DNA of 64,000 bases from Candidatus Margulisiibacteriota bacterium (GCA_034723395.1 JAYEOW010000029.1:73293-137292); one strand, 5' to 3'. Shown: positions 10,003-64,000, numbered from the stretch's first letter. Numbers and translations: made by a program. The notes: generated by a model from the letters alone, not told the origin.

Positions 10003-12701
<2,699 letters not shown>

Positions 12702-12729
12702 TTTTCCTTACCTTCCTTTCTTTTTATTG

Positions 12730-12801
12730 TGGAGCTGAGGGGATTTGAACCCCTGACCTCTTGACTGCCAGTCAAGCGTTCTCCCGCTGAACTACAGCCC
12801 C
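12730..12801 (-). tRNA. tRNA-Ala (anticodon GGC), CCA encoded
   Basis: The reverse complement GGGGCTGTAGTTCAGCGGGAGAACGCTTGACTGGCAGTCAAGAGGTCAGGGGTTCAAATCCCCTCAGCTCCA carries the G3:U70 Ala identity pair. Confidence 0.9.
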
Positions 12802-12811
12802 ACGGTTTTGT

Positions 12812-18678: not shown

Positions 18679-18706
18679 TGAAATTTCCTGTGAATCAGCC
18701 CGATAA
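18679..18706 (+). promoter_or_regulatory. Sigma-28 (FliA/SigD)-like promoter TGAAATTT-N12-CCCGATAA
   Basis: Matches the motif consensus found at five other sites. Located 21 nt upstream of the ATG at 18728. Confidence 0.5.
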
Positions 18707-25047: not shown

Positions 25048-25057
25048 TTATCCTGAA

Positions 25058-45676: not shown

Positions 45677-46315
45677 TTATTGGTCTATGACGAAAGTCCT
45701 CCCGGTCATTCCGGTCATCCCAGAGCGAATAACTCTTGTTCGCTTCTTAACGACCCTAAAATAATTTTTTACAGTTACCGTTTTTCCCTTAATTGTTACT
45801 GCTAAATCTCTTGATCCAGGAGTAGCGCTGGCTGAAATCGAGATATCTCCTCTGATTACTCCATTAGTAATAGTTAGATTGCTAACGGTGATCCCCGATC
45901 CCAGCGAAATGGAGAGGTCGCCGGTTTGAGCTAAGGCCGTTGGAGAAGAGAGCTTACAATTTGCTTTCTGCTCGATCTCTTGTACTGAAATGCCAAGGAT
46001 TTTACCTGCAAATGACTGGCCTTGAGTAGCGCCTTTTAGAACTTCAATGCGAGTGCCATTGCGTGTGATCCTTTTAATGATAGGAGCAACGCTTACTGAT
46101 ATGGCATGAAGAGTTGTTGGCTTACAGCTAGCTGCAGTCGCCATGGTCGGAGTCATCGGCGAAGGCCGTGTCCCTTGCGCCTTTTTGATCAACGCATTGC
46201 AATCCTTTTTTGAAATGCTGTCCGCTACAGGCTTTGGGGCCTTTTTTGCTCCGCAAGCCGCCAGGAAACCCACTCCTATTAAAGATGCTAATCTAACCAT
46301 TCTTCCTAATCTCAT
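45677..46315 (-). CDS. Lipoprotein (LAAC lipobox), Ig-like
   Basis: MRLGRMVRLASLIGVGFLAACG signal with lipobox. Confidence 0.7.
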   Translation of the reverse strand: MRLGRMVRLASLIGVGFLAACGAKKAPKPVADSISKKDCNALIKKAQGTRPSPMTPTMATAASCKPTTLHAISVSVAPIIKRITRNGTRIEVLKGATQGQSFAGKILGISVQEIEQKANCKLSSPTALAQTGDLSISLGSGITVSNLTITNGVIRGDISISASATPGSRDLAVTIKGKTVTVKNYFRVVKKRTRVIRSGMTGMTGRTFVIDQ

Positions 46316-46344: not shown

Positions 46345-46372
46345 TTATCGGCACTTTAAGTGATAAATTTCA
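46345..46372 (-). promoter_or_regulatory. Sigma-28 (FliA/SigD)-like promoter TGAAATTT-N12-GCCGATAA
   Basis: Perfect GCCGATAA -10 box. Lies 30 nt upstream of the start at 46315. Confidence 0.55.
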
Positions 46373-46384
46373 CTTTTTTACAAA

Positions 46385-47317
46385 TTATTGCGGGATCTCA
46401 AAAATCGGCTTTTTCCTCGGCGGCTTTCTCTTCATGGGAGGCTTCCGCTTCATCGGCGGTTTTTTCTTCATGGGAGGTTTCCGCTTCATTGGTGATCTCC
46501 GCGGAGTTTCTCTCATCGGAGCCTTCATTGCTGGTCTTGGCGCAGGTGCTGTCCTGGTAGTAGGCTTGCCGCATTTATCTATGGTTTTTTCTATCTCATT
46601 AGCAACTTTAAGCAGAAATTCTGGCGTAAGCCCTTTTAAAACGACCTTTGAGGAGTTTAATCCAAGGTATTTAACCCGAAAATCGCCAACACCTTTAACG
46701 ACCCGGTTGCAAGCTTTCTTTTGGGATTCGGTTAAGATGCCGGATAAACCGGAAACCACGTCAAACAGAGGGTTGTGGACAGCTTTCTCCCCGATCGTAA
46801 TAGTTTCAGATGAAAGCATTGTGATCATTGCTTCGCGTTGAGCAGGGGAGAGGGAAGCTATTTTGTTCTGCAGAGCCTTATGGGCAGAGCCGATTAAAAA
46901 CTCTCGCTTGTTTTGGGATGGATCAGCATAGATAGTATTAACTAATCTTTTCGCAAAAGACCTGGCTAAAACAGGCTTTCTTTGGTTGTCTTTGTTGGTA
47001 TTCAATCCCAGTCGATTATCAATCAGCAGATTCTTGGGGTTACATATCTCATTGCTAACTTTAGGGCTTGCGTCGGAGATTATCGCTGTCAGGTCCGCAA
47101 AGGAGATCTCAACAAACTTGCCTGCTTTGTTTTTGCTTCCCGCAACCTCAACTTGTTTAGGCCCGCAAGAAGAAAGGATTCCAAGGCCCGATAAAGCCAG
47201 GGCAGCCGTTGCGCCCGCTGCGGCGCTCTGTTTTAAAAATCCACGTCTTTGTTCTAAGGTGACCGTTTGTCTTTGCTGGGGACGGAAAAACGATCTTATT
47301 CTGGTTAGTAATTTCAT
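46385..47317 (-). CDS. Tat-signal lipoprotein with a C-terminal basic Pro/Lys repeat tail
   Basis: QRRGFLKQSAAAGATAALALSG is a twin-arginine motif, followed by lipobox LSSCG. The C-terminus has four KRKPPMK repeats, encoded by a 36-bp tandem DNA repeat at 46419-46490. Confidence 0.75.
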   Translation of the reverse strand: MKLLTRIRSFFRPQQRQTVTLEQRRGFLKQSAAAGATAALALSGLGILSSCGPKQVEVAGSKNKAGKFVEISFADLTAIISDASPKVSNEICNPKNLLIDNRLGLNTNKDNQRKPVLARSFAKRLVNTIYADPSQNKREFLIGSAHKALQNKIASLSPAQREAMITMLSSETITIGEKAVHNPLFDVVSGLSGILTESQKKACNRVVKGVGDFRVKYLGLNSSKVVLKGLTPEFLLKVANEIEKTIDKCGKPTTRTAPAPRPAMKAPMRETPRRSPMKRKPPMKKKPPMKRKPPMKRKPPRKKPIFEIPQ

Positions 47318-47348: not shown

Positions 47349-47376
47349 ATATCGGCACTTTTTTAGGTAAATTTCA
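47349..47376 (-). promoter_or_regulatory. Sigma-28 (FliA/SigD)-like promoter TGAAATTT-N12-GCCGATAT
   Basis: The -10 box equals the Bacillus SigD-type GCCGATAT. Confidence 0.55.
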
Positions 47377-47462
47377 CTATTTTTAAAGATTTGTCCGGGC
47401 CGTTTTGGCCCTTTCAGCTATCTTATTATCGGGAGGATTTGGGAGAAATTTCAGGTTATTTT

Positions 47463-52021: not shown

Positions 52022-55000
52022 TTAGTATGGTCTTACCATGTTCCAATTGATTGAGCTCTGAACAGGTTCGGTTAGCATGTAACCTTTACCTGGGATCAAC
52101 TGTAATGTCGTTGGAGCAGCCAATGTTCCATCTAACCATGTTGCTGATTCGGTATGGACAGCGACGCCATCTACGCCGCCAATTGTGTCGGCGTTTGCGT
52201 CGAAATGATAAGCCATAGCTGCGACTGTCGGACTTGGGGCATAGGATGAGGCATTTAATCCAGCATTAACAATATCAACTGGTATTGGATAAGGGTTAGC
52301 CATCCAGTTGGCAGGCATGGAGGCCCCGCCATCTAAGGTGCGGTCGTAATCGGCTTCTCGGACCATACCTACAAGAGTGATAAATCTACTGGTCATCGTG
52401 AAATAACCATAGGTGTAACCAATTTCAATATCGGTAATTGGGCCTGTGGCGCCAGGATAAGTATCCCAAACACCACCAGAAAAGATCGATCCTTCGGTTA
52501 CGTTTTTGCCGATGTCGAAAGACATGATCATATCCGTATCCGCGGCCTGATTTCCTATTACGTTTTCAAGCGTGGTATCACTTAGCTCTAAAGGACTTGA
52601 GATGAAAAATCTTTCAATTTCGGTCCCAACCGCAATATCAAACTTCCCGGCCACATTGGTCTCCAGGTCGCTATCTTGCAGTGTATTTCCGGTAGGTATA
52701 ATTTTGTAGTATTCTGCGGTTCCTTGTCCAACCTGGTTTTGGATCGTTATGGAGCCAATTGTAACATTGGCCTGTTCCAAAGTCCAATCCGCGGCGGCAG
52801 TCGTAAAATACGAAGTATAGTTGCCATCCGTGTCGGTAGGGCAGGTCAATTTATAAACATCCACGCCGAGTCCCGGAGGGATCGTGTCCCAGGTAATAGT
52901 TATTCCAGAACCTGGATCATCGCCATCGCGGGTGATCTCGATATTTACGATCGGATCTCCGGCAGTAGAGCCGGTTTCAAAAGTAAACGGATTTGGCTGG
53001 GTGCCGGGGATCAAGGCGTGTCCGTTAGCCCCGTCTGCCGCAGTCACGTCAAATTCATATAAAGTATCGATAGCAAAAGGAGTATCGTGGACCAGCGTTA
53101 CCTGGGTAGGTGAATTCCACTCGGCAGCTCTCCATCCTGTTGGATCCGGATTGATCGAATAGGTAAAGGTTGCCGGGTTAATATCCTGGTTAAAGGTGAT
53201 AATAACTTCCTGGTTTAAGGTTACATCGGTTGAAGATTCAACCGGAGTAGTATTAATTATGTATGGAGCTAACTTGCTGGGATCGGTTGACGCCGTAAAA
53301 GTAAACTGGGTTGTGCCAGTTAAAGTTTCTGCCAGGGTGCTTTGCGCGCCGACATCAAATGTATATTCTGTGCCGACAGTGAATAGTTCACCGGCGTGAG
53401 GCAGGCTTGCCCGCGTATTCCCTTCGGTCCAGATAATGCCGTCAAAGTTCACGTTTGGCGTAATGTTCATGCTGAATGTGCTGGTGTCGACCGCGCGGTT
53501 GAACTTGATCGTGACCGGCGCGTTTAACGCGACATCCGTTTCGTTATTAGTCGGATAAGTCTCGGTGACCTGGAACTCTCCGCCGCCGGTGTTAATTACA
53601 AAGTCGGCAGGCCCGGTCCCCCCATTTCCGAGGCCGTCACCACCATAAGGGGTGGTAGGGACCATAAGGTTCCCATCATCGGCTACGGCCATCCATTCGT
53701 ATGCGCCGTCCGCTAGTCCGTCAAAAGTGATCCTTACCGTGGTCCCTGAAGGGACGGGATCGATAGAAATTCTGGTCGGGGGGTCCATCGTCTCCGCTAT
53801 CCGGTATCCGGCGCTTGGAATAATTTCGTCTCCATCCGGATCGATAACTGTGAACTCGACGATTACCGTATTATTATCTGTCTCTTCCCCTTTTTGGAGC
53901 ACAGTTGTCCCGTCATGCGCGTACTGCACCAGGTTTGTCGGATTATTGGGATATTGATTTCCGGCATAGATACTATAATCTTCAAAATTCCCGTCCGGGC
54001 TGTTGCTTAATCCCGCGTATTCCCCATTGTTGTCAACAGAGAGCCCGTCGGCCTTAATGGCGCTGGTTATCTCGGTCCCTGCTCCAGGGATACTGGAGGT
54101 ATTGATCCTGTATATTTTAGTGGTGTTTTCGCCGGCATCCTGCGCCTTTTTGAATACCACTTTGCTGCCGTCCCGGGTAACGTCAAAGGCATTCCATCCG
54201 TACGACCCGGAGACATCACAGGTGACATTTCCGACCAATGATTCGTCGGATGTGTTGTAAGCCTTCACGACAACATCATCGTAACCGTTGACCGCGGCAT
54301 AGAGCCGGTCGTTGCTGAACTTAAGATAAGTAGGGTAGGTAAGATCGGTGTTAATGACCTTCTCGTAAACCACAGTGTCGTTTACGTCTCCGTAGGTAAA
54401 GACGTAGATCTCTCCAGCCGAAACTTTACGGGAAAGATATACCTTGTACGAAGTGGCGCTGGTCGAAGTGACCGCGATATCATAAAGATTGGTCTTTCCA
54501 GCGAGATTAGTGATAACCGCTTTAACATAGGTGTCGTTTAAGGTATCGAAGATAAGCATTCTGCCGATACCCTGATCAGCGACAAAGAGGCGGTTGTTGC
54601 CGCCAACAGCCATTCCGGCAGGAGAAGATGCGGACGCCCAATAGGCGCCGGTCATCTCATTGACGGTCCCGGTAGGAATACCGGTAGAAGGGGTTAACCC
54701 ATGAGCCTGGACGGCAGAGTTTTTACCGTTGCTGATGCTTATATATAATGTATCCCCGTTTGGTGAAACGGCGAGCCCGTAACATTTGGAACCGGCCGGA
54801 AGTGGGATCGTGCCCGCGACAGTACCTTTCCATTCGTAAGGAATGGTCGCGGATTTCGCGTATATTTTAATTTGCGGGACTGAGTTGTCGACGATATAAA
54901 GCGTATCGGAGATCGGGTTGATCGCGCTTTTGGCGGGGGTAACCGCGGTAATTGCGTGAGCTGAAGCGCTAAGGCCGATCAGCAGGGCCGTTAAAAAGAG

Positions 55001-55030
55001 CAGATATTTAAAATACTTTTTTATCTTCAT
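52022..55030 (-). CDS. Secreted 1002-aa surface protein with beta-propeller-like repeats and Big/SbsA-type Ig domains
   Basis: Signal peptide MKIKKYFKYLLFLTALLIGLSASAHA. TPVESSTDVTLNQEVIITFNQDINPATF is SbsA_Ig-like. Confidence 0.8.
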   Translation of the reverse strand: MKIKKYFKYLLFLTALLIGLSASAHAITAVTPAKSAINPISDTLYIVDNSVPQIKIYAKSATIPYEWKGTVAGTIPLPAGSKCYGLAVSPNGDTLYISISNGKNSAVQAHGLTPSTGIPTGTVNEMTGAYWASASSPAGMAVGGNNRLFVADQGIGRMLIFDTLNDTYVKAVITNLAGKTNLYDIAVTSTSATSYKVYLSRKVSAGEIYVFTYGDVNDTVVYEKVINTDLTYPTYLKFSNDRLYAAVNGYDDVVVKAYNTSDESLVGNVTCDVSGSYGWNAFDVTRDGSKVVFKKAQDAGENTTKIYRINTSSIPGAGTEITSAIKADGLSVDNNGEYAGLSNSPDGNFEDYSIYAGNQYPNNPTNLVQYAHDGTTVLQKGEETDNNTVIVEFTVIDPDGDEIIPSAGYRIAETMDPPTRISIDPVPSGTTVRITFDGLADGAYEWMAVADDGNLMVPTTPYGGDGLGNGGTGPADFVINTGGGEFQVTETYPTNNETDVALNAPVTIKFNRAVDTSTFSMNITPNVNFDGIIWTEGNTRASLPHAGELFTVGTEYTFDVGAQSTLAETLTGTTQFTFTASTDPSKLAPYIINTTPVESSTDVTLNQEVIITFNQDINPATFTYSINPDPTGWRAAEWNSPTQVTLVHDTPFAIDTLYEFDVTAADGANGHALIPGTQPNPFTFETGSTAGDPIVNIEITRDGDDPGSGITITWDTIPPGLGVDVYKLTCPTDTDGNYTSYFTTAAADWTLEQANVTIGSITIQNQVGQGTAEYYKIIPTGNTLQDSDLETNVAGKFDIAVGTEIERFFISSPLELSDTTLENVIGNQAADTDMIMSFDIGKNVTEGSIFSGGVWDTYPGATGPITDIEIGYTYGYFTMTSRFITLVGMVREADYDRTLDGGASMPANWMANPYPIPVDIVNAGLNASSYAPSPTVAAMAYHFDANADTIGGVDGVAVHTESATWLDGTLAAPTTLQLIPGKGYMLTEPVQSSINWNMVRPY

Positions 55031-55033
55031 CGA

Positions 55034-56071
55034 TTATTCCCCCTGCGACAGATTGAGCGTGACCGACACCGGCGCGTAATAGGTGGCGTCGACCGCTGAT
55101 CTGGCGTCGATATAAACTTTGTAGCCGAACTCGACACCGGTCTCTCCGGTTTCGTTGCATACCGGAGGGATGTCAATGACATACGGAGCCATATTGCTCG
55201 CGTCTTCGGTGCAAACCGTGCCGATTCTTTGAGAATTCGAAGGGTCAAAACCTGGGTTGAGTAAGTCTTCCGGGCTGAAGTACCGGTTATCTTCGAAGTG
55301 TGTGGGTTCTCCATCAGCATAACATATCAGGTAGTAATATGCCAGGTATAGGGGGAGCCGGTTGTTGGCGTCATCCGGGCAAGACCAAAGCTTATCGTAT
55401 TCCGGGGTTTCGCATCCCGAAATTCCCCAGAGCTCACGGTTTTCATACTCTTCGGCGGTTAACATGCCGAGATTGATCAAACCGTCAAAACAACCCATCA
55501 CGATGTCAGGGCTGTCGATGATCCCGTTGCCGTCCCAGTCGATCTGGATAGCGAGCGGGTTGCTAGCGACCCTGATCTCGAGGTCAACACTTTGCAGGCC
55601 GGAGCCGACTAGACGGCCGGACCTTACTGCAAGTAATCCAGTTCCCTGGATAAGATCGGTTCCTGAACTTTCGATATGATCGACAAAACCGCTCCCGATA
55701 AATAAGTTGCCGCCATCATCGGTCGGGTGGGGGATCGATCCATCCATGACACCGCCGTCGCTGGGGTCCATTACATGTCCGTCGCCAATATGGTCGACAA
55801 TGTTGTCCCCTGACGCTCCGCCGCATCCCACGGCGCTGATCTCAGATTTGCTGGACCATATATCACTGACCCAGTTGATCGCTCTTTTGTAAAAGGGCTC
55901 TTCAGCCTTAAGTTTAAACGCGATAGAAGGCAGATCAATATTGGCGGCTGGTTTCGGCTCTGCGGCCGGCTCGTTTGCGATACACATTCCTTCGTCAGCG
56001 CTGTACTGCCCGACGACATCTCCGCTCCTTTTGCTCACCACATTGTAATTCATTGATAGATCGAAACTCAT
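55034..56071 (-). CDS. Signal-peptide-less protein (paralogue A): conserved ~100-aa N-terminal domain plus an EF-hand/dockerin-like Ca-binding loop
   Basis: Its N-terminus aligns with paralogue B at 61467..63068 (YN..Y.R.G.LV..Y...C...EP.APE...YKR..N.V...W.SKS...AVGCG). DWDGNGIIDSPD is an EF-hand loop. Strong RBS AAGGAGGA. Confidence 0.8.
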   Translation of the reverse strand: MSFDLSMNYNVVSKRSGDVVGQYSADEGMCIANEPAAEPKPAANIDLPSIAFKLKAEEPFYKRAINWVSDIWSSKSEISAVGCGGASGDNIVDHIGDGHVMDPSDGGVMDGSIPHPTDDGGNLFIGSGFVDHIESSGTDLIQGTGLLAVRSGRLVGSGLQSVDLEIRVASNPLAIQIDWDGNGIIDSPDIVMGCFDGLINLGMLTAEEYENRELWGISGCETPEYDKLWSCPDDANNRLPLYLAYYYLICYADGEPTHFEDNRYFSPEDLLNPGFDPSNSQRIGTVCTEDASNMAPYVIDIPPVCNETGETGVEFGYKVYIDARSAVDATYYAPVSVTLNLSQGE

Positions 56072-56118
56072 TTTGTTTCCTCCTTAATTAGGCCGTATGG
56101 CCGTTCTTACCTAATGTA

Positions 56119-56146
56119 TTATCGATACCTTTTGGCAATAATTTCA
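56119..56146 (-). promoter_or_regulatory. Sigma-28 (FliA/SigD)-like promoter TGAAATTA-N12-ATCGATAA
   Basis: Matches the motif consensus. Upstream of the paralogue A operon. Confidence 0.5.
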
Positions 56147-56164
56147 CTTTTCGGGCAAATCGTA

Positions 56165-58336
56165 TCAGGTCTTTTTTCCGGCATTCGGGTTTAATGTGTT
56201 TATGTCATTTACTCCCAGGTAATCGAGTATATCTTTTGCCCCTTTTGCAAGCCTTAGCGCCGTTTGCTGCATATCCCAGGCTGTTTGCCCGAGCCGCGCG
56301 TCGATCTTATCGGCATTAGCGATTATTTTTTCCGCTTGTGCTGAAACTTTTTCGGTCTCCAAAGATAACATCCGCATACCGTCTTTAACGCTGCCGGGTT
56401 TGCTGGCCGGATCGATATCCTGAAGAATGGTTGCCATGTCTGTAAAAATTCGCTTTTTTTCTGCCTCGTATTTGGAGCTAAGCGATGCACGGCTGCTGTC
56501 TAATAATCTTTGGGTTATTCCCAATCGTTTTTCTTTCATGGTTATGAGTCGGGAATTTTTGTCTGGATCGGAGCTCAGTTCAGCGATCTCTTTTTTAAGG
56601 CTGTCCACGGTTTGCCCTAGTTCCGGTATGTTTTCGTCTTTGGCTAAAGCATTTTTATACCATTTATCTAACTGGTCAAGCTGGAATTTAAAAGACATCC
56701 TTGCGCCTTCGATGGTCTCTTTTAGGGCGTCGGTTTCGGAGGCAAGGTTACCAAGGGCATGGGCTCGGGCCATAAGGTCCCGGTTTTTTGCCCTGAGCGC
56801 ATCAGCAGTTTTGCCTTCGGCGGCTTCTTTTGCGGCAGTTGCCTGACCAAGATCATGTTCGGCGACCTGCAGAGCGGTTTTGAGGTCGACGACTTGATTG
56901 CGGGCAATTTTTAGTTTCGCTTCCAGCGAAGCGGTCGCCTCTCTAATAGCCGCCTGCGTATCTACTATTTTTGCCGCTTCGTTTATTGCTCCTGACGGAA
57001 ACGTCTTTGTCGCGCTCGATCCTGTTTCTACCTTGATACCCATTTCATCGACTCCATGAATCTTTTCCTTTTCGAAAAGGAAAAGGGTAATATTATCTTT
57101 TGAGGTTAAAACTGCTTTATTCATTAATTCTCGCGCGGTTTCGGCGACCGGCGATAATTTATTTTCGGTCAATATTTCTTTTATCCTTTTAAACGTCATT
57201 TCCTGCAGGCCGTCAGAAAGGACCAGGAAACGGTCCCCTTCCTTGATTGCCACTTCTGTGACAGTGATATCAATTTCATCCTTTCCCAGGGATTGAAGAA
57301 TAACGTTAGCCCTGAGGTTGTTTTTTCCGGCATCGAGCTTTTTAAGATAATCCTCTCCGTATGGGGCTCTTGTATCTTTTTCTCCGCTCTTTTCCTCTAC
57401 TTCGAGGCGTGCTAATCCTCCTATTACTGAATCGGGGGCGGTCAGGAGCTCCAATTCCCCGCCATATTTCGAACGAACGATCAAGCTGTCCCCGATATGC
57501 GCGACGCGGGCGCTCTTTTCGCCGATCTCAAGGATCGCCAATGTGGTATCGGGACAATGTGCTTCATGCGGAGCATAGCCGTACTCAGTTTTATATGAGG
57601 TTTTAAAATCAGAAATGTATTTTCTTAGTCCTTTGCTGGCGGCATCGACAATATTGGGCAGATCTAATCCATTTTCGATCGCGAGCATGGCCGCGGAAAG
57701 GGCGATATCCGAAGCGACCTCTCCATTTGCCGCTCCGCCCACGCCGTCGGCGACCAGGAGATATTTTTTTCCGTTCGCTTCAACATAAGCCATTCCATCC
57801 TGATTATTTTTCCTTCCGCCTACATTAGTGATGCCGTATATTCCTTTGTCCGATAGGTCTATCTCTCCGTTTTTTATGCCGCCGGAGCGGATGTCACAGT
57901 TGGGAAGGCGGGCATATAGTTCACCTATCAGTTCCTCTATTGCCTTATCTTCATGTCCGATCCAGTTTCGGGCGGCCACAAAGATATGCACGGGTTGCTC
58001 ATAACTCTCCTGCGCAAGCAATGCCCTTAGGGCTTTTTTGGTGCTTTCCGGATTACCGTTTTCAAGTACCTTTATTTGCGCTTCTTCGGGGCGGGGAGGG
58101 GGAATGTTCGCAGGTTTTTCCGCGGGCAGCTTCATTAATGCTAATGTGAGTTGTCCTTGTAATGCAAGGGCCTCCATTTTTATTTTCCCGTCAACTTGCG
58201 CCTGTCCCAATGCGATCGGCTGGATAACATTTTGTAGAAGTTTTGCGAGAGGGCCCCTCCACCTTGCTTGTGGTATTGTTTTTTTCCTGATGTTGCGCAA
58301 GTGGGCTAAAGTTATTTTTCCAAAATTAACAGGCAT
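56165..58336 (-). CDS. PP2C-family Ser/Thr phosphatase with a long C-terminal coiled coil
   Basis: LVADGVGGAANGEVASDIALSAA is the PPM motif. Its start overlaps the kinase stop. Confidence 0.85.
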   Translation of the reverse strand: MPVNFGKITLAHLRNIRKKTIPQARWRGPLAKLLQNVIQPIALGQAQVDGKIKMEALALQGQLTLALMKLPAEKPANIPPPRPEEAQIKVLENGNPESTKKALRALLAQESYEQPVHIFVAARNWIGHEDKAIEELIGELYARLPNCDIRSGGIKNGEIDLSDKGIYGITNVGGRKNNQDGMAYVEANGKKYLLVADGVGGAANGEVASDIALSAAMLAIENGLDLPNIVDAASKGLRKYISDFKTSYKTEYGYAPHEAHCPDTTLAILEIGEKSARVAHIGDSLIVRSKYGGELELLTAPDSVIGGLARLEVEEKSGEKDTRAPYGEDYLKKLDAGKNNLRANVILQSLGKDEIDITVTEVAIKEGDRFLVLSDGLQEMTFKRIKEILTENKLSPVAETARELMNKAVLTSKDNITLFLFEKEKIHGVDEMGIKVETGSSATKTFPSGAINEAAKIVDTQAAIREATASLEAKLKIARNQVVDLKTALQVAEHDLGQATAAKEAAEGKTADALRAKNRDLMARAHALGNLASETDALKETIEGARMSFKFQLDQLDKWYKNALAKDENIPELGQTVDSLKKEIAELSSDPDKNSRLITMKEKRLGITQRLLDSSRASLSSKYEAEKKRIFTDMATILQDIDPASKPGSVKDGMRMLSLETEKVSAQAEKIIANADKIDARLGQTAWDMQQTALRLAKGAKDILDYLGVNDINTLNPNAGKKT

Positions 58337-60663
58337 TATACTGGACCTCCCTTGAGAACAAGGCTGGATACTTTGGCCATTAGCATAGGATATTGTAATT
58401 GGACATCCGGATCGGATGAATATTCGGCAAGTATCCTGCTGAGATTTTGCACGACAGTTTGTAGGTCTTTTGCAGTTAACATGTCAGGTTTTGTGAATAG
58501 ATCCTGCTGGACAGTTAACATATAAGTGATCACGCTTGCCCGGTTTTGGAGATCAAATTCGCCAGCTTTAGGCAGTAACGTTACATCATCAAGCGTGCTC
58601 TCGGGTATTTCCGGCGCCTTGGGGGCGGCAGGCTTGAATGATGGCTGAAGGGTTCTTTTTGCGATCGCCGCTCCACTTGGCCTTGGTTCCACCCCTTTTT
58701 TTGCCGGTTTTTGGCCAGCCAGGGCATCTTCTTCAGGGACCTTTTGCATCGCAGTCGGCTCAAATGCCGCCGGAGCAAAGGATCCCGGGGTTCTTGGGGT
58801 AGCTTCGGTTTTTGTTTTACCATTTGAACCGCTCAGGGGTTTAAAGGCGGATGAGACGTCGGCCATAGAGTGGAAGTTGTGTTCCGGATCGTGCGATATC
58901 ATCTTGGTTACGATCTTGCGCAATCCCTCATGAGGAATGTCTTCTAGAGGAATGTCTTCTAGGGCTTTTTGAAGCATTGCCTGATATTTTGGCTCACCCG
59001 GATTTACCAAATATTTCATGTAGAATTCAGATTGTTTCAGGCTTTTTAACGGATTTTCTCCGGTTATACATTCGAGCATGGTAATTCCAAGCTCGTAGAT
59101 GTCAATTAAAGCGTTCAATCCTTTTTGGGTCTTTGCTATTACAGAGTAGGCGTAAGGGGCCATATAGTACGGGCTCCCGACGACATGCTGTCCGGCGGTC
59201 AGGGTCGCTTCGGTAGTATCTTTGGCAATACCAAAATCGATAATAACCACTTTTTCTTTGCCTTGAGCGTCTTTGGTGAGCACCAGGTTTTTTGGTTTAA
59301 TATCCCGGTGATAAATGTCGTGTTGATGGGCATAACTTAAGGCGTCGATTACCGGAGCAAAGAGCTTGATGGCGCGTTTGTGGGTAAGGCCGGTTTTGGC
59401 GATGCCATCGAGGTTTGGCGCCGGATCGTCTGAACCGGGCTTATCAGGGACAAACTCGGTTACGATAAAAATATCCCCCGCCTCCTTGAGCTGGCTGATC
59501 TCGAAGGTGTGTTTAAATTTTTCCGGTCTAGTAATGTTTGGAAATTTAACGTCTATATTTGTGTCTACGGTCGAACAGATATTAGGATGCTTTATTTTCT
59601 TGCCAGAGGTGAATTCGAGCCATGCGCGCTGTAAAAATGCCATGACCGTGTTTTTTGATTCTTCGGATTCCGAAATAGCCCCTTTTGCGGCAGTTGATAC
59701 CTTTAGCGCGTATTTGTGCCCGGTTACGTTTTCAACCAGAAGGACTTCGCCCATTCCGCCTTTTCCAATAACGCCTAACTCTTTATAATGGGAGAGGGTC
59801 CCCGAATAATCGAAAGCGGCCTGGTCAACGCCTCCAGTTTGAGGCAGGTCCATGCTATCAAGCGGGATAATTTCATCCGCAGCAGTTTTTCCGCCGGTAA
59901 CCGCCCTGTCGACTGCGGCATCCAGTTTTTCTCTATGCTCAGGAATAAACAGTTCGGTTACTTTGGTCCCTGCTTCGGTTGTTTTTGGTCTTCCATCAGC
60001 TCTGGTATAAGGGAGAAGCGCCTTCGCGAGAATATCCTCGTTATCAGTAAATGCATCATAAATTACTTTTTCTGCTTTTGATTTGATAATTTTTGTCGCG
60101 GCAAAATGGGTTATTCCGCCCAGGATAGCGCCAAGAAGCGCGTTGCTTCCAACAAGAACTCCAGCTGCGGCGGCCGCGCTTTTTCCTAATATTAACGGAA
60201 AGAATATTCCAACGCTGGCAAAAACGCTGACAAAAGGGAGGGCCGCCCCGATCGCGATCGGAAGGGCATATATTAAGGCTTTCCATTTTCCCGCCAACTT
60301 CGGTCCTGAAAAATTAGTGATCGCCTGGTCTATTTCTGCTACTTTTGCTTCTTGTCCGGGTGGGGGGAGGGGATCCACTTTCATAGTAGTTTTTGCGGGC
60401 GGATGTGGTGCTGTTGTAGTTGCGCCGGTTTTGGTGTTTATCTCTCCGCTTACCGATATGTTTGGGTTGCCTTTTAAAAGCGAATCAGGAGCTTTTGGAC
60501 CGCCGGATGAAGGAACGGTTCCCATTATCATCCAAAGCGGAGCGGTTAATAGCTGAAATAATTTTGGGTGGCGCTGAGAAAAAGGATTTCTCTGTTGTTT
60601 TGGCGGCGCCATTTTCTTTTGCAACTGATTTAATCTTACCGGGCTAATATATCTTCCGATCAT
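58336..60663 (-). CDS. Hanks-type Ser/Thr protein kinase with N-terminal TM segments and a C-terminal extension
   Basis: GVIGKGGMGEV (Gly loop), YHRDIKPKNLVL (catalytic loop), DFGIA and GSPYYMAP. The start was set at ATG 60663 (MIGRYISP, RBS GGGAGG) rather than the track start at 60708. Confidence 0.85.
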   Translation of the reverse strand: MIGRYISPVRLNQLQKKMAPPKQQRNPFSQRHPKLFQLLTAPLWMIMGTVPSSGGPKAPDSLLKGNPNISVSGEINTKTGATTTAPHPPAKTTMKVDPLPPPGQEAKVAEIDQAITNFSGPKLAGKWKALIYALPIAIGAALPFVSVFASVGIFFPLILGKSAAAAAGVLVGSNALLGAILGGITHFAATKIIKSKAEKVIYDAFTDNEDILAKALLPYTRADGRPKTTEAGTKVTELFIPEHREKLDAAVDRAVTGGKTAADEIIPLDSMDLPQTGGVDQAAFDYSGTLSHYKELGVIGKGGMGEVLLVENVTGHKYALKVSTAAKGAISESEESKNTVMAFLQRAWLEFTSGKKIKHPNICSTVDTNIDVKFPNITRPEKFKHTFEISQLKEAGDIFIVTEFVPDKPGSDDPAPNLDGIAKTGLTHKRAIKLFAPVIDALSYAHQHDIYHRDIKPKNLVLTKDAQGKEKVVIIDFGIAKDTTEATLTAGQHVVGSPYYMAPYAYSVIAKTQKGLNALIDIYELGITMLECITGENPLKSLKQSEFYMKYLVNPGEPKYQAMLQKALEDIPLEDIPHEGLRKIVTKMISHDPEHNFHSMADVSSAFKPLSGSNGKTKTEATPRTPGSFAPAAFEPTAMQKVPEEDALAGQKPAKKGVEPRPSGAAIAKRTLQPSFKPAAPKAPEIPESTLDDVTLLPKAGEFDLQNRASVITYMLTVQQDLFTKPDMLTAKDLQTVVQNLSRILAEYSSDPDVQLQYPMLMAKVSSLVLKGGPV

Positions 60664-60723
60664 TCTAATTATTCCTCCCAATCTATATTGTTCTTGCCCT
60701 AAAGGCACACTATCTCTATGTAT

Positions 60724-60751
60724 TTATCGGTAAGTTATCCATATAATTTCA
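60724..60751 (-). promoter_or_regulatory. Sigma-28 (FliA/SigD)-like promoter TGAAATTA-N12-ACCGATAA
   Basis: Matches the motif consensus. Lies about 60 nt upstream of the kinase start. Confidence 0.5.
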
Positions 60752-60867
60752 CTTTTTCGTCAAATTCTTTTTGGAAATTTTCCCGCGTTCATTATATATG
60801 TTGATGTTACGCGGGATCCCGCAGAGCGGGACACTTTTATGGGAAATAATTGTTAAGTAGTTTTGTA

Positions 60868-60904
60868 GTATTGTAGTGTTGTAGTTTTGGGGGTAATTGT
60901 CGAG
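60868..60904. repeat. GTAGT(N)TTGTAGT oligorepeat forming the left inverted repeat of the four-helix-bundle cassette
   Basis: gtagttttgtagtattgtagtgttgtagtttt is the reverse-complement partner of 61431-61460. Confidence 0.5.
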
Positions 60905-61008
60905 ATATTTTAGGTTTCAGCTGTGTTTGTGAGGGGGCAATGGGATTGCTATTCTATTCTTAAGTAGGATCGTAGTGTTGCAGTTAATAGTATAGGAGGA
61001 GATGGGAG

Positions 61009-61344
61009 ATGAATGGTTTTAAGGATTTGATAGTGTGGCAGAAGGGGTATGAGTTGTCGTTGTTGGTATATAAAATAACTAATAATTATCCAATGCGCTC
61101 CTGTTCAATTTCGGTTCCTGCTAACATTTCCGAGGGTTATGAGAGAAGAAGTAAAAAGGAGTATCTCTATTTTCTAAATGTAGCTAAGGGATCATTAGGT
61201 GAGCTGGAAACCTATTTATTGCTTTCTCGGGATTTGAATTTTATTAATGAGAATGAATGGAGAGAGCTAGAAGATCTGCGAGAAATAACTCTGCGCCTCC
61301 TAAGGGGTTTGATGAGGTCCGTTAGAGACAAGCTTAACCTTTAA
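61009..61344 (+). CDS. Four-helix-bundle protein (23S rRNA intervening-sequence protein family, Avd-like)
   Basis: FKDLIVWQKGYEL...SVPANISEGYERRSKKEYLYFLNVAKGSLGELETYLLLSRDL matches the TIGR02436-type pattern. Confidence 0.8.
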   Translation: MNGFKDLIVWQKGYELSLLVYKITNNYPMRSCSISVPANISEGYERRSKKEYLYFLNVAKGSLGELETYLLLSRDLNFINENEWRELEDLREITLRLLRGLMRSVRDKLNL

Positions 61345-61394
61345 CCGGTACTTTTCCATACTGAGTTTTACATTATATATAAGTGGGGGCGGGG

Positions 61395-61460
61395 ATGTAG
61401 TCTTGTAGTGTTGTAGTGTAGGAACCAATACTACGATACTACCACACTACAGCACTACTA
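61395..61460. repeat. Imperfect long hairpin (gtagtcttgtagtgttgtagtgtagg ... ctacgatactaccacactacagcactac), right end of the four-helix-bundle cassette
   Basis: Reverse-complement comparison done by eye. Confidence 0.5.
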
Positions 61461-61466
61461 AATCGC

Positions 61467-63068
61467 TCAGTCCCCCCAAAGCGAGATTGGGATCGAAGTG
61501 GTGTTTGTCTGATAGTTCTCGTCGGTAATTGTTAAGTATGCGGTGTGGGCAGCGTTGTTTCCCGCTCCCGGATTAGGATAGGCGTGAGAAAATAGTCCGG
61601 TTGCGTTGGATTCGGCCGGTGACCCGTCGCCGTAGAATAGCTCATAATTAATGATGCCGGCGCCAATTGGCGAGTAACTGTGGGTGGCGTCAAAATCGAT
61701 GTTATAGCCGGAACCAGGGCCGCTGGCTGGATTATGGGCAGCGGTGATGGCCGGCATAGGGACAGACTGACCATATACTTCTAATGTCCTGATATAATAA
61801 TTTGTTGTTTCATTATCTCCGGCAGTAACCAGACATTTAAAAGCGTAATTTCCCAGAAGATCAAAAGTATATGGAAGGAGAGTTGCTCCTGCGAAATTTT
61901 CGATCGTCTGTCCGTTGCCGTTTGGCCCCGGACGGGTAATTGTCCAGGAAAAGGTCGCCGCTGGATCGTCGGAATTACAGATAATATTCGGGTTCTCTGC
62001 TGTATCATCCAAACCGTAGGAATAGTTTAAATAACCGATGGTAACTGATGGTATTTCGGTATTAGTTGAAGGGTTGTTAATAACCAAACCTGCAGCGGCC
62101 GATTCGGGAATTAGAAAGGCGTTGGTGGATTTATCCTTAACTTTGATCCCGATCGGATAGTATCCGGGATTCCATTCGTTAGTGGTATTAATATCCGCAT
62201 AAAATGTGTTTAGCCCGGGAGTGGCTTCGTACGACTGATTATTAATAATGAAAAAGACCTGGAGATGGCCAGCTTCGGCCACTGGTGTATCATTGCAGTC
62301 AAAGATCGCTTCCATCGGGAAGAAGAGAGAGGCCGATTCTCCGGGAATGACTTCAGAGGGATCAACCTGAACTCTATATCCGGGGGTGACCTTTGGTTTT
62401 GGATAAAGATCGCAGGTATCTTGAGGCGGAGTAGAAAACTCAAGCTGAGTATAAATGAATTTTTCCAATAGCAGCTCTCCGCTTGAGTCTCTGATCTCAG
62501 CCCTGATCGGCGGGCCCCAGATCTCATTGGCAACGATCGATGCGGAGAAGATTTTCGTATCGGTATCATAGGCCATGGGGACGCCAACCGCAGTATCGCC
62601 GGAATCTAATGAAGAGTTTGCAAATAGGGTAACGGTAAGCGCAGCAGGATCATCAACACATTCGGGCTTGGTAATCGCGAGATCAAAGGAGACGGTTGAA
62701 CCCAGCTCTATCTTTCCCGAAGAGTTGAAGCTTGAAGCGTTGACCGTCAGGTTGCCGAAGGCGGAGTCTAAAGAGGTACAGCTTTCGTTAACATTCCCGC
62801 CGGTGATCCATTCCCCGCAGCCGACGGCTCCATCGGACTTTGAGGTCCAGAGATTCTTAACACCATTTACCAGGCGCTTGTACCAGGCCGGTTTGGCATT
62901 TGATTCGATCGCGGCGTGGAACTCGATCGCGAGCGGAGAGGCATATTTAACGTCTTCCGGAGCGCTCGGTTCTGGAGAAACGCACTGCTGGGAATTCATG
63001 TCGTAGGCGCTGACTAATTCCCCGTTTCTGTAAATATTGTATATTCCATTATCTCCAGCGATATCCAT
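61467..63068 (-). CDS. Signal-peptide-less protein (paralogue B): conserved N-terminal domain plus PKD domains
   Basis: N-terminus is homologous to paralogue A. C-terminal INYELFYGDGSPAESNATGLFSHAYPNPGAGNNAAHTAYLTITDENY matches the PKD motif. Confidence 0.8.
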   Translation of the reverse strand: MDIAGDNGIYNIYRNGELVSAYDMNSQQCVSPEPSAPEDVKYASPLAIEFHAAIESNAKPAWYKRLVNGVKNLWTSKSDGAVGCGEWITGGNVNESCTSLDSAFGNLTVNASSFNSSGKIELGSTVSFDLAITKPECVDDPAALTVTLFANSSLDSGDTAVGVPMAYDTDTKIFSASIVANEIWGPPIRAEIRDSSGELLLEKFIYTQLEFSTPPQDTCDLYPKPKVTPGYRVQVDPSEVIPGESASLFFPMEAIFDCNDTPVAEAGHLQVFFIINNQSYEATPGLNTFYADINTTNEWNPGYYPIGIKVKDKSTNAFLIPESAAAGLVINNPSTNTEIPSVTIGYLNYSYGLDDTAENPNIICNSDDPAATFSWTITRPGPNGNGQTIENFAGATLLPYTFDLLGNYAFKCLVTAGDNETTNYYIRTLEVYGQSVPMPAITAAHNPASGPGSGYNIDFDATHSYSPIGAGIINYELFYGDGSPAESNATGLFSHAYPNPGAGNNAAHTAYLTITDENYQTNTTSIPISLWGD

Positions 63069-63623
63069 TTATACCACGACCTCTCCAATCTTTAACTTTT
63101 TTAACAGTTTTACTTGTAATTTATGCGGAACCTTTTGGGCATCCAGTTCTCTTTTTAACGCTGTAATATCATCATCATTTTTTACGAGCGATTTCAGTTG
63201 ATTTATACTTTTTCGTTTTTTTACAAAACGGACCAGTTTTTCGACCCCCAGGGTCAAGAACCCTCCAACTACGCCGATCGTCCCAATCGCGGCGGCGGCA
63301 AAGCTCGAAGCTGCCAGGAGCAATGCTCCGCCAACGGCGACCCCGGCGGCGCCGATGGCTTTGGCGGTTGAAAACCTGACTTCGGGTTTCTTAGATGGCT
63401 CTACGATGTTTTTTGCGTCCACAATTACTTCGATGCCGGAGAGAACGGTTAAAATAGCGCCTGGAGCGATCGCTCCCAATCCCCAGATACCTACGGCGGC
63501 GGTTGGGATAACAAAGCCGGGTCTTTTCCTGGCAAAACGTACAGTCGCATAAGGAGAACGCGCGCTGTTATTATACTTCCGGACGGCAGTTCTTACTCGT
63601 GATGGTAATGTTGTTGCGATCAT
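63069..63623 (-). CDS. Small membrane protein (2-4 TM) with a C-terminal charged helix
   Basis: Hydrophobic segments FVIPTAAVGIWGLGAIAPGAILTVL and AIGAAGVAVGGALLLAASSFAAAAIGTIGVVGGFL. RBS GGAGGAAACAG. Confidence 0.7.
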   Translation of the reverse strand: MIATTLPSRVRTAVRKYNNSARSPYATVRFARKRPGFVIPTAAVGIWGLGAIAPGAILTVLSGIEVIVDAKNIVEPSKKPEVRFSTAKAIGAAGVAVGGALLLAASSFAAAAIGTIGVVGGFLTLGVEKLVRFVKKRKSINQLKSLVKNDDDITALKRELDAQKVPHKLQVKLLKKLKIGEVVV

Positions 63624-63642: not shown

Positions 63643-63670
63643 TTATCGACACTTTTCGGGTAAAATTTCA
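63643..63670 (-). promoter_or_regulatory. Sigma-28 (FliA/SigD)-like promoter TGAAATTT-N12-GTCGATAA
   Basis: Matches the motif consensus. Lies 20 nt upstream of the start at 63623. Confidence 0.5.
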
Positions 63671-63678
63671 GCTAAAAT

Positions 63679-64000
63679 TTAAAAGCGGAGCAGCCAATTG
63701 AAACCGAGTCCCCAGCTCCAATACTTGAAGGTAGTAGTGTTCTGGTGAGATACGTTGCCGGTAAGCTGGATCCTGCCGTATTTTCCCATGTTATACTCAA
63801 GCCCAAGCCCCCACTGCCACGGGCCGGTGCCAATGGTGCGATGGGTGGTTATCCCTTGTGCCGGGTTATATTCCCGCTCATAAATTGGAATATTTACAAA
63901 GGCGCGTATTTTTAGCAAATTATGGCTGATTCTCGGCTTGAGGAGTTCGGCTAAGTCGAGTTCGTAATTTAAGCCGAGGGCCAAGGAGCGCCGATTGCGG
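63679..64000 (-). CDS. C-terminal part of an outer-membrane beta-barrel protein; 5' end beyond the right edge
   Basis: Ends ...WSWGLGFNWLLRF with an aromatic C-terminus, and has alternating hydrophobic residues. The frame remains open to the window edge. Confidence 0.55.
   Translation of the reverse strand, partial: RNRRSLALGLNYELDLAELLKPRISHNLLKIRAFVNIPIYEREYNPAQGITTHRTIGTGPWQWGLGLEYNMGKYGRIQLTGNVSHQNTTTFKYWSWGLGFNWLLRF

Follow-up and report, generated by a model that had tools for sequence, protein, structure and literature searches.

Two minus-strand proteins, A and B, encoded beside a membrane Ser/Thr kinase and a PP2C phosphatase in a 64-kb stretch of DNA from a Candidatus Margulisiibacteriota bacterium (hereafter the window), share a conserved N-terminal module that ends in an invariant cysteine. 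We tentatively read this module as an atypical Cys-anchoring or export leader that works together with membrane modules. An earlier note on this DNA proposed that it is either a non-classical export module or a kinase-regulated intracellular adaptor; the evidence leans toward targeting or anchoring without deciding for either, because the terminal Cys aligns with lipobox-like leaders of relatives, LspA-like and Lgt-like genes neighbor one homologue, and the membrane modules are paired.

Results

The order of the genes and their coordinates are as previously described. On the minus strand, a 184-aa protein with two transmembrane segments (2-TM protein, 63069-63623), which has no Pfam or NCBIfam match, is followed by B (61467-63068; leader 62817-63068, codons 1-84; body 61467-62816), the kinase (775 aa, 58336-60663), the PP2C phosphatase (723 aa, 56165-58336) and A (55034-56071; leader 55823-56071, codons 1-83; body 55034-55822). 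The stop of the kinase gene and the start of the PP2C gene overlap by 1 nt. The longest kinase reading frame starts with GTG at 60708, but it is the ATG at 60663 that has a ribosome-binding site and agrees with the start of the orthologue. The rest of the cluster codes for surface proteins and a giant protein. Sec-type surface proteins come after A on the minus strand, and the gene directly 3' of A (52022-55030, minus strand), which encodes a 1002-aa Big_5 surface protein with a classical signal peptide, starts 3 nt past the A stop and also follows A in L002. Given this 3-nt gap, A and the Big_5 protein are probably co-transcribed, so that the co-transcription with Sec-secreted surface proteins suggested for both paralogues is probable for A. 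At the other side, the window end cuts a giant GH26/TPR gene (3' end at 63679-64000, minus strand), a conserved upstream neighbor of the cluster whose DNA is 80% identical to the last part of the GH26/TPR gene of L002, which encodes 1773 aa. We only infer its C-terminus (…GLGFNWLLRF) to be beta-barrel-like, and the C-terminal parts of the giant TPR proteins matched no Pfam barrel family.

The gap between B and the kinase contains a strain-specific insertion (60857-61462), missed by the earlier note, in which a PF05635 four-helix-bundle gene on the plus strand (61009-61344) lies between TGTAGTNT-type repeats, both direct and inverted (60857-60989 and 61396-61462). The insertion is absent from L002, where the B-kinase spacer is about 217 nt.

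The sigma-28-like promoters that had been assigned to each of the three units are real and conserved. The motif GAAA-N17-CGATAA (equivalently GAAA-N15-nnCGATAA) lies on the minus strand before the 2-TM/B unit (63643-63669, at the same position in L002), before the kinase/PP2C unit (60724-60750, conserved in L002 at 11723) and before A (56119-56145, conserved in L002, L003 and L005); a conserved 5' hairpin, GGCCATACGGCC, comes after the promoter of A. On the other hand, the motif is lineage-wide and not specific to these units, occurring 7 times in the window versus 0.21 expected, with one copy standing before rpoD, and a σ70-like assignment fits about equally well: a σ70-type scan also calls the promoters of 2-TM/B (CTGAAA-18-GATAAT) and A (GTGAAA-18-GATAAT). 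The sigma-28 (FliA) consensus is TAAA-N15-GCCGATAA. Neither a FliA-type sigma factor nor a flagellar or motility regulon was seen within the 64-kb window.

The similarity between A and B is limited to their N-termini (BLASTP E = 2e-9, 35% identity over 79 residues) and is significant under a proper alignment statistic (Smith-Waterman z = 19.2; 0 of 1000 shuffles reached the score). The shared domain, previously put at about 100 residues, is therefore a real homology but a shorter one of about 84 residues, reaching to the Cys of AVGCG. In B, it comprises a predicted beta-hairpin, the invariant Cys29 (QCV), a Pro-rich linker, the amphipathic helix WYKRLVNGVKNLWT, SKS, and AVGC with the invariant Cys84; the leader of A is laid out in the same way with Cys30, the helix FYKRAINWVSDIWS, SKS, and AVGC with Cys83. 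With a μH of 0.62 and a mean hydrophobicity near 0, the helix is strongly amphipathic, and the Ser/Thr-rich motif beside it (SKS/TSKS) is conserved. The hairpin and helix come from structure prediction of the domain, whose models are of low confidence.

The leader is under purifying selection, with dN/dS of 0.10 in B, where it is more conserved than the body (0.17), and of 0.16-0.39 in A. It has no match in Pfam, NCBIfam or the PDB, and a profile search against 1.84 billion representative proteins recovered A and one B orthologue and nothing else. Its supposed novelty thus holds: no family, structure or database relative was found outside a narrow clade. The leader is found again in A-type as well as B-type proteins from distant lineages (z = 11.4, 6.0, 5.4 and 5.3). 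Cys84 of B is invariant in 7/7 aligned B-family sequences and is among the few invariant columns, and the leader-end Cys is present in all A-type sequences. The first Cys is kept in every protein with the full module; together with the hairpin it is conserved like the rest of the leader, which one would not expect of a leader destined only for removal.

As had been claimed, neither protein has a hydrophobic signal peptide. The maximum Kyte-Doolittle mean over 12 residues is 0.8-1.1 in the leaders of A and B, compared with 2.5-3.0 in three downstream Sec-type proteins and 2.2-3.0 for the signal peptides of the window overall, and hydropathy analysis found no hydrophobic stretch anywhere in A or B. 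With no hydrophobic core, the leader is most likely not a classical signal peptide. One might suspect that the true starts lie elsewhere and add normal signal peptides, or that the genes are decaying pseudogenes, and the single point in favor of such an artefact is that PKD-type proteins lacking a signal peptide are generally rare. However, upstream in-frame starts are impossible for both genes, which have in-frame stops directly upstream: the ATG of B immediately follows the stop of the 2-TM gene, leaving no room for another start, and the open frame of A begins just 4 codons 5' of its ATG. The ribosome-binding sites at both starts are good, as previously noted, and the same N-termini are found in orthologues of three independent assemblies, which excludes a frameshift artefact. 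Together with the purifying selection acting on the leader and the lack of a hydrophobic segment in either protein, these observations effectively refute the artefact, which we regard as hardly credible.

The leaders also differ from ordinary lipoprotein signals. The lipobox rule requires [LVI][ASTVI][GAS]C, uncharged residues immediately before it and a Cys no later than about residue 35. A and B fail the PROSITE lipoprotein rule (PS51257 type), AVGC fitting its last positions only, and they lack the h-region of 7-22 hydrophobic residues before the lipobox; K and D/E stand at -5 to -9 from the terminal Cys, which is at residue 83 or 84. The same pattern finds a genuine lipoprotein of the window (45677-46315). 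The lack of an h-region and the charges near the Cys make textbook handling by Sec, Lgt and LspA hard to envisage, and the invariant Cys at the leader end is the one lipoprotein feature that A and B do have. Two other export signals were rejected. A double-glycine leader does not fit, as the GG/GA/GS cleavage motif varies, with GCGG in A, GCGE in B and ACDG in P0016. Nor does a Tat signal, which has S/T-R-R-x-F-L-K before an h-region, since A and B have YKR, P0016 has YES, and there is no h-region; a genuine Tat-type signal lies elsewhere in the window (46385-47317).

The bodies of A and B look extracytoplasmic. B carries Cys-bracketed Ig-like modules and, at its end (residues ~340-533), PKD-like domains. 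The PKD domains ascribed to B are supported at the level of family and structure: the B-family profile matches the ColH PKD domain (E = 1.6e-12), the C-terminal domain of the B model resembles ColH PKD 4jgu_A in Foldseek (target-normalised TM-score 0.68; pLDDT 80-92 for residues 440-533 only), and B homologues carry precomputed PF00801/PF18911 matches. B itself gave no Pfam PKD match, even at E <= 10 on separate pieces. The body of A, a Cys-rich orphan domain, contains a Ca-loop-like segment, DWDGNGIIDSPD (residues 178-189, window 55505-55540). The EF-hand loop pattern of PROSITE (PS00018) matches this segment and the corresponding ones of two orthologues, so the loop described earlier stands as a pattern match only. 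The distant A-type protein L005_347 does not match the pattern, Pfam and NCBIfam searches detected no EF-hand or dockerin domain in A, and each protein has a single loop. The A body has no Pfam, NCBIfam or PDB relative and is homologous to L005_347 (E = 2e-25); its AF2 model is unusable (pLDDT 27). A and B each contain 8 Cys, whereas the cytoplasmic kinase and PP2C have 2 apiece. However, the true Sec-type neighbors are Cys-poor (0.3-0.5 per 100 aa), which makes Cys richness an ambiguous sign of export.

The cysteines allow another reading, to which we give a rather low probability, namely that the module serves proteins exported by a non-classical route as their long pro-region or intramolecular chaperone. 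The two conserved Cys would then form a disulfide loop, the terminal Cys would be structural, pairing within the mature protein, and no lipid would be attached. Cys counts are even (6, 8 or 10) in all family members listed, Cys97 of B is as invariant across the B family as Cys84, the first Cys accompanies the full module throughout, and bodies of extracellular type argue for export. Yet P0013 and P0010 keep the terminal Cys without the first one, the window contains no C39-peptidase ABC transporter or other candidate dedicated exporter, and the leaders show no conserved GG cleavage site and, where twin arginines would stand, have KR (A and B) or ES (P0016).

The kinase consists of an N-terminal region, a membrane module (~127-185), a catalytic domain (~293-600; Pkinase PF00069, E = 2.6e-31) and a C-terminal tail. 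Its catalytic motifs GKGGMG, YALK, HRDIK and DFG are all present, so that by sequence it qualifies as a Hanks-type Ser/Thr kinase. The phosphatase has a PP2C domain at residues ~174-420 (PP2C_2 PF13672, E = 1.3e-16; Stp1-type match, E = 2.8e-25) and then a long helical, coiled-coil-like tail with a weak SMC-like match at residues 466-612; the metal-binding motifs NQDG, ADGVGG, GDS, SDG and DNIT are all present, as expected of a PP2C (PPM) phosphatase, which it is predicted to be. In the 2-TM protein, long hydrophobic stretches span residues ~38-70 and ~87-127, and the C-terminal tail is charged. This protein appears to be a free-standing copy of the N-terminal membrane module of the kinase by a link that is transitive only: it resembles the N-terminus of the L006 kinase (z = 9.6) and L006_369 (z = 5.4), L006_369 resembles the N-terminus of the window kinase (z = 6.4), and the paralogy with the kinase membrane module reaches E = 3e-43 in L006, while the window 2-TM protein and kinase module gave z = 1.5 when compared directly. 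Sequence comparison found the 2-TM protein unrelated to the LspA-like or Lgt-like proteins.

In relatives, the position of the terminal Cys is occupied by lipobox-like leaders (…LLPGC, …VLPGC). P0010 has a hydrophobic leader there, …AILAGMALLPGC (Kyte-Doolittle mean 1.99 over 19 residues), P0013, which lacks the leader module altogether, and P0014 have …IPGC and …VPGC, respectively, and the A-type L005_347 consists of the N-domain and …LPVPGLLVLPGC. In L006/L007, a B homologue with a long hydrophilic leader is encoded directly behind LspA-like and Lgt-like genes. Their equivalog scores are about one third of the cut-offs (28.8 vs 73.95 and 39.3 vs 118.9 bits, respectively), and since housekeeping proteins of this organism clear their cut-offs easily, the scores suggest that the two are specialised paralogues. 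Of the two, the LspA-like protein retains the pair of catalytic Asp positions, and the Lgt-like protein apparently has no equivalent of H103. As the pair is seen in one lineage only, it could also be the housekeeping pair of that lineage. At other loci a small membrane protein occupies the slot of these genes; the sole locus without it is L004, whose B has its own hydrophobic leader.

The idea that the N-domain co-occurs with STK/PP2C pairs was borne out: it always lies beside a membrane Ser/Thr kinase, which follows B in 5/5 lineages found, and PP2C is present wherever the contig extends far enough. Such strict linkage also suits the main rival to Cys anchoring, a possible but less probable reading in which A and B stay at the cytoplasmic face. 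There the leader would serve for docking or regulation, its helix binding the kinase, the phosphatase or the membrane modules, and the leader might itself be phosphorylated at the conserved SKS/TSKS, with the Ig-like bodies as intracellular scaffolds. It would explain why A and B have neither signal peptide nor transmembrane segment and why the leader is better conserved than the B body, as for a retained functional domain, and it accommodates the two invariant Cys inside the module and the Ser/Thr-rich motif adjoining the helix. On the other hand, proteins with tandem PKD/Ig-like modules, pairs of bracketing Cys and a Ca-loop are typically extracytoplasmic, relatives have a truly hydrophobic lipobox-like leader at the same position (P0010) or no module (P0013), LspA-like/Lgt-like genes adjoin the B homologue in L006, and the gene for A is apparently transcribed together with those for Sec-secreted surface proteins.

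Discussion

The leaders of A and B resemble type II (Lgt/LspA) lipoprotein signal peptides in ending with small residues and an invariant Cys ([LVA]-x-G-C), and the hydrophobic leader before the Cys in relatives and the LspA-like/Lgt-like genes beside one homologue strengthen the likeness. They differ in their length of 83-84 residues, which puts the Cys far past position 35, in having charges near the Cys and no hydrophobic core, and in the hairpin with its second Cys. N-terminally extended signal peptides are also known, and in the extended signal peptide region (ESPR) of autotransporters about 25 residues precede a normal n-h-c signal peptide. The A/B leader is likewise a conserved N-terminal extension before a targeting element of large surface proteins, but no h-region comes after it.

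Threonine phosphorylation controls type VI secretion in Pseudomonas through the TagQRST-PpkA-PppA pathway. There too, a membrane Hanks kinase and a PP2C encoded with accessory envelope or lipoprotein components control an envelope process. Unlike that system, the present cluster has no T6SS genes or FHA protein, its accessory proteins are unrelated, and the membrane module of its kinase is N-terminal to the catalytic domain, with no sizeable periplasmic sensor. Outer-membrane proteins that combine TPR and a beta-barrel are encoded near their cargo in Slam (surface lipoproteins) and BcsC/PgaA (polysaccharides). Similarly, a TPR giant with a beta-barrel-like C-terminus lies directly upstream of the putative Cys-anchored protein at every locus. 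This likeness appears to be architectural only, and the giants, unlike those proteins, carry GH26 or GH8, which points more to polysaccharide handling. Finally, PKD surface proteins such as Clostridium ColH collagenase resemble the B family, whose C-terminal domains match ColH PKD by profile and fold, while B itself lies below Pfam detection and lacks a signal peptide.

The Cys-anchoring reading is also favored by the PKD/Ig-like body of B and the Cys richness of both proteins, by a leader that is constrained and recurs in A-type and B-type proteins of distant lineages, and by the membrane-protein slot, which is filled except in L004, where B has a hydrophobic leader. According to this reading, both proteins would belong to the envelope, B as a series of Ig/PKD-like modules and A as a Cys-rich orphan domain that bears the Ca-loop-like segment. 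In the leader, a linker would join a hairpin that carries one conserved Cys to a basic amphipathic helix, and a Ser-rich SKS segment would lead on to a terminal [LVA]-x-G-Cys, whose Cys would be the counterpart of the lipobox Cys and the site of anchoring or processing, possibly by lipidation. The helix may dock on a dedicated membrane module and so bring the protein to the membrane; this module would come in two forms, one free-standing (the 2-TM protein, whose gene precedes B) and one that makes up the N-terminal part of the kinase, whose gene precedes A. The anchoring step may then be under phosphorylation control by the membrane kinase and its PP2C partner.

In its most specific form, which we consider improbable as a whole, the cluster would encode a dedicated pathway, independent of Sec, for delivering two specific envelope proteins and anchoring them through Cys. 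Leader docking would take place on a small hairpin module, free-standing or fused to a Ser/Thr kinase, phosphorylation of SKS would act as a gate, and processing would fall to specialised LspA-like/Lgt-like enzymes, which one lineage would still encode within the cluster.

Results

The leader shared by A and B

The minus-strand genes follow one another in the order and at the coordinates first read from the sequence, namely a membrane protein with two predicted transmembrane segments (2-TM protein, 184 aa, 63623-63069), B (533 aa, 63068-61467), a Hanks kinase (775 aa, 60663-58336), a PP2C phosphatase (723 aa, 58336-56165) and A (345 aa, 56071-55034). The same strand goes on with a Big_5 surface protein of 1002 aa, which has a classical signal peptide and starts 3 nt past the stop of A, then a TIG/He_PIG protein (796 aa) and an SLH protein (651 aa). 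The kinase start at ATG 60663 has a ribosome-binding site and agrees with the start of its orthologue. An Rfam search of the block gave no match.

A and B can be aligned over their first ~84 residues only, with 35% identity (BLASTP E = 2e-9; Smith-Waterman z = 19.2, the real score being equalled by none of 1000 shuffles). The common N-terminal domain proposed in the earlier note is thus significant, but shorter than the ~100 residues it had been given. No further reading frame of the window contains the module. Upstream in-frame starts are ruled out, the ATG of B abutting the prior stop codon and the frame of A opening just 4 codons ahead of its ATG, and the suspicion of an upstream frameshift is answered by identical N-termini of A and B in independent assemblies. 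In a comparison of the window with L002, a strain of 80% identity, dN/dS is 0.10 in the leader of B against 0.17 in its body, and 0.16-0.39 in the leader of A against 0.16-0.19 in its body. Because the starts are fixed, the N-termini recur across assemblies and dN/dS indicates constraint, the leader is a translated and constrained module, and an annotation artefact is essentially excluded as its source. That the 2-TM protein and B might be fused or joined by readthrough was rejected, since other loci separate the two genes by 15-20 nt.

In order, the module comprises a predicted hairpin, in which QC[IV] is conserved, then a linker, a basic helix of amphipathic character (WYKRLVNGVKNLWT; mean hydrophobicity ~0, μH 0.62), the Ser/Lys motif [LI][WF]x[SK]K[S] and a final [LVA]-x-G-C. 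The hairpin comes from the structure prediction suggested in the earlier note, made with AF2 and of low confidence only; the model of A was unusable (pLDDT 27). Related loci belong to about five lineages, some of them from metagenomes: the window clade (L001-L003), L004, L005/L011, L006/L007 and L008-L010. A and B of the window clade have the full module before the Cys, ending in AVGC, and the B-type protein of L008 (P0012) has the full module ending in …LWGSKSSPARLTGC. In the A-type protein of L005 (L005_347), whose body is homologous to that of A (E = 2e-25), the module is followed by …LPVPGLLVLPGC before the Cys. Three further forms occur among B-type proteins: a divergent module ending in …TSRTSRC in P0011 of L006, a degenerate hairpin with a truly hydrophobic stretch (…AILAGMALLPGC) in P0010 of L004, and only MDI(M/K)GLLFGKK(I/V)GG(I/V)PGC in P0013 and P0014 of L005. 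Irrespective of the preceding sequence, two Cys are invariant among the seven aligned B proteins, C97 and the terminal C84, and C84 falls in the same column as the Cys of the lipobox-like leaders. The invariance of both is consistent with a non-lipidated export propeptide with a Cys-Cys loop, a third reading that we regard as improbable. A thioester motif was rejected: B has GCGEW, without the Gln that CGEQ would require, and in A the residues are GCGG.

The leader is an orphan module. Pfam and NCBIfam gave no match for A, B or the 2-TM protein, nor did Pfam at E <= 10 for A and B divided into fragments, the PDB for the leader profile, or a word-indexed search of 5.8 billion proteins for the N-domain profile. 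The profile search proposed in the earlier note, run exhaustively with HMMER on 1.84 billion representatives, returned A and one B orthologue as the only credible matches and revealed no wider family; six weaker matches were judged spurious, since these are repetitive proteins scoring by many summed weak stretches. Full-length searches added orthologues of A (two) and of B (one) and five remoter B relatives, a B-family scan of genome contigs found none, and a metagenome scan recovered only the lineages already known. A five-sequence profile of the close leaders reached the remote ones only at a borderline E = 0.14, and the link between near and distant leaders is therefore made by pairwise shuffle statistics (L008_B vs L005_347, z = 11.4; B vs L008_B, 6.0; L005_347 vs P0011, 5.4; A vs L008_B, 5.3).

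Absence of a hydrophobic signal core

That A and B have no signal peptide is borne out by hydropathy: the highest Kyte-Doolittle mean over 12 residues is 0.8-1.1 in their leaders against 2.5-3.0 in three Sec-type neighbours, and no 19-residue window of either protein exceeds 1.2. The organism does use ordinary signals, since the same window encodes a textbook lipoprotein (45677-46315, …SLIGVGFLAAC) and a protein with a Tat-type signal (46385-47317, …QRRGFLKQSAAAGATAALALSGL), neither of which A and B resemble. A Tat signal and a double-glycine leader were considered for them and rejected. In the literature we found no precedent for a lipobox-type Cys after a long non-hydrophobic leader; where candidate papers say 'unusually long', the term carries another sense.

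We tentatively read the module as an atypical, Cys-ended targeting or anchoring leader of two envelope proteins, working through a lipobox-type Cys, a helix with membrane modules, and kinase/PP2C control. The missing hydrophobic core is among the strongest objections, as is the high conservation of the hairpin and first Cys, which would be odd if the leader were discarded. Both features could be accommodated if A and B were adaptors at the cytoplasmic face or substrates of the kinase; given the lipobox-like leaders of their relatives, we consider this main alternative rather unlikely.

Paired membrane modules and the conserved cluster

The 184-aa protein is related to the membrane module at the N-terminus of the L006 kinase (z = 9.6) and to a free-standing L006 protein, L006_369 (z = 5.4), which in turn is related to the N-terminus of the window kinase (z = 6.4) and to the module of its own kinase (41% identity, E = 3e-43); direct comparison of the 184-aa protein with the window kinase module was not significant (z = 1.5). 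From these shuffle comparisons, the cluster contains two pairs of modules, the leader in A and B and a membrane hairpin in the small protein and the kinase, and each leader protein is encoded directly after a membrane-module protein. Small membrane proteins as LspA-like or Lgt-like remnants were rejected (z ~0). In L005, the kinase (11810-14482) and a separate 530-aa coiled-coil protein (16363-17955) have near-identical first ~50 residues (MG[FY]GMKTG…WYQNRVEG…GVWGGG), a third N-terminal module common to two cluster genes.

The conserved order is giant proteins, a variable slot, B, a membrane kinase, PP2C with coiled coil, A and Ig-like surface proteins. A membrane-module kinase follows B in five of five lineages, and PP2C and an A-type protein are present in both lineages whose contigs are long enough; L002 and L003 have a second kinase (428 aa) besides the membrane kinase. 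In four lineages a small membrane protein (184, 200, 108 or 86 aa) occupies the slot before B; the slot is empty in L004, where B itself has a hydrophobic leader.

In L006/L007 the slot contains an LspA-like and an Lgt-like gene, which score far under the curated equivalog cut-offs (28.8 vs 73.95 and 39.3 vs 118.9 bits, respectively); housekeeping proteins of the window organism are comfortably above theirs. By the reference sequences and numbering of E. coli, the LspA-like protein retains both catalytic Asp positions and the Lgt-like protein the equivalents of R143, Y235, R239 and E243, with H103 apparently missing and the N146-G154 segment not alignable. A contig scan of species-representative genomes found no relatives of the L006 Lgt-like protein. 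That the LspA-like/Lgt-like link comes from a single lineage is a further strong objection to an anchoring leader.

The giants (1100-1900 aa; L002 638-9348, L004 71-9948, L005 1483-9595, L006 565-8168, window 63679-64000) always lie on the upstream side of the cluster. They join TPRs to a GH26 or GH8 domain and to a C-terminal region that ends in an aromatic residue, as outer-membrane beta-barrels do. They may be a component of polysaccharide or lipoprotein export; a Slam- or BcsC-type barrel was dropped, the barrel part being without Pfam match.

Enzymes and protein bodies

The kinase and the phosphatase are intact, ordinary members of known families. The kinase has complete catalytic motifs (GKGGMG, YALK, HRDIK, DFG); its membrane module precedes the catalytic domain, and a sizeable external sensor is missing. 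PP2C has its metal-binding motifs and a long helical tail. The flanks (2-TM protein with B; A with Big_5) are 77-80% identical in DNA between the window and L002; the kinase catalytic domain and PP2C have no nucleotide similarity and 31-40% protein identity. The diverged stretch (catalytic domain, kinase C-terminus and PP2C) covers ~56151-60131 of the window and 12331-17704 of L002, and the sequence comparison identifies it as a replaced or hypervariable cassette inside a conserved cluster.

The body of B is a string of Ig-like modules bracketed by Cys pairs. The PKD domains ascribed to B find support in the family profile (E = 1.6e-12 against ColH PKD) and in the fold of its C-terminal domain, the sole usable and confident part of the AF2 model (target-normalised TM-score 0.68 to ColH PKD), but B alone lies under Pfam detection. 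The body of A is an orphan in Pfam, NCBIfam and PDB searches; three orthologues match the EF-hand pattern of PROSITE in the DWDGNGIIDSPD loop noted as EF-hand or dockerin-like, and L005_347 does not match it. Each of A and B contains 8 Cys, and each of the two enzymes 2.

Promoter motifs and neighbouring features

The motifs noted as sigma-28-like promoters lie exactly where the earlier note placed them (63643, 60724 and 56119), but they are not specific to this operon and can also be read as σ70-like. The window has 7 copies of GAAA-N17-CGATAA where 0.21 are expected; allowing CGATA[AT] raises this to 8 sites, six within the envelope region at 46-64 kb. The σ28 consensus is TAAA-N15-GCCGATAA. 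The extended motif aaaa(g/c)tGAAATtt…aaa(g)tg(c/t)CGATA(A/T)tat fits it, and can equally be read as GTGAAA, an 18-nt spacer and GATAAT; two of the three sites are also picked up by a σ70 scan. As a motif it is real and conserved, and since it precedes nearly every transcription unit of all related loci, the LspA-like gene included, we take it as a lineage-wide type. Further copies (tGAAAT-N~16-CGATA[AT]; 7246-7272, 18680-18706, 46345-46371, 47349-47375 and 47426-47452) precede rpoD, which itself follows dnaG, a short ORF at ~18.74 kb, the canonical lipoprotein gene and the Tat-signal gene. Short GC-rich hairpins just 3' of promoter motifs (56089-56100, 47400-47415 and about 60695-60712) suggest 5'-UTR stem-loops; they have no Rfam match, and the one before A (GGCCATACGGCC, 56089-56100) is kept in L002 and L003.

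The minus-strand description had overlooked a plus-strand PF05635 gene (23S rRNA intervening-sequence protein, four-helix bundle; 61009-61344) between B and the kinase. It has TGTAGTNT-type octamer repeat blocks, direct and inverted, on both sides within 60857-61462, and the window has no further copy of the repeat. The element looks like a small strain-specific insertion, since it is present in the window and the identical contig L001 and missing from L002. A diversity-generating retroelement was rejected, as no reverse transcriptase was found in the window. Elsewhere the window encodes the ordinary housekeeping functions of a chromosome (dnaG-rpoD, PPDK, arg genes, glmS, glycoside hydrolases). 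A Fic/DOC-family gene and a 7TM-PAS-GAF histidine kinase adjoining a sigma-54-type response regulator (3769-4728 and 21775-26284) showed no connection to the leader.

Discussion

If the leader directs anchoring, its terminal Cys would be the counterpart of the lipobox Cys, its amphipathic helix would act together with the membrane modules of the cluster, and both would be under the control of the kinase/phosphatase pair. What the analysis establishes is the module and its constraint, the invariant Cys with its lipobox-like counterparts, the gene associations, the related modules and the intact enzymes; export, lipidation, docking and control by phosphorylation are inferred. In this most likely role it would be a variant lipoprotein-type signal and no separate category. 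What would surprise a specialist in protein export is that the leader breaks the rules, that the LspA-like/Lgt-like pair is divergent and that modules are paired.

Should A and B instead be cytoplasmic adaptors, the leader would be a new kinase-linked domain on Ig-like scaffolds, of narrower interest. On either reading, reach and testability are limited by the restriction of the family to few uncultured lineages. If the leader does direct anchoring or export, lipoprotein-like membrane targeting would be possible without a hydrophobic signal core, a partner membrane module being needed and kinase control perhaps involved, and the rules behind all signal-peptide and lipoprotein predictors would broaden. 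For the Margulisbacteria, an uncultured sister lineage of Cyanobacteria, it would offer a first functional way into a conserved cluster of envelope genes.
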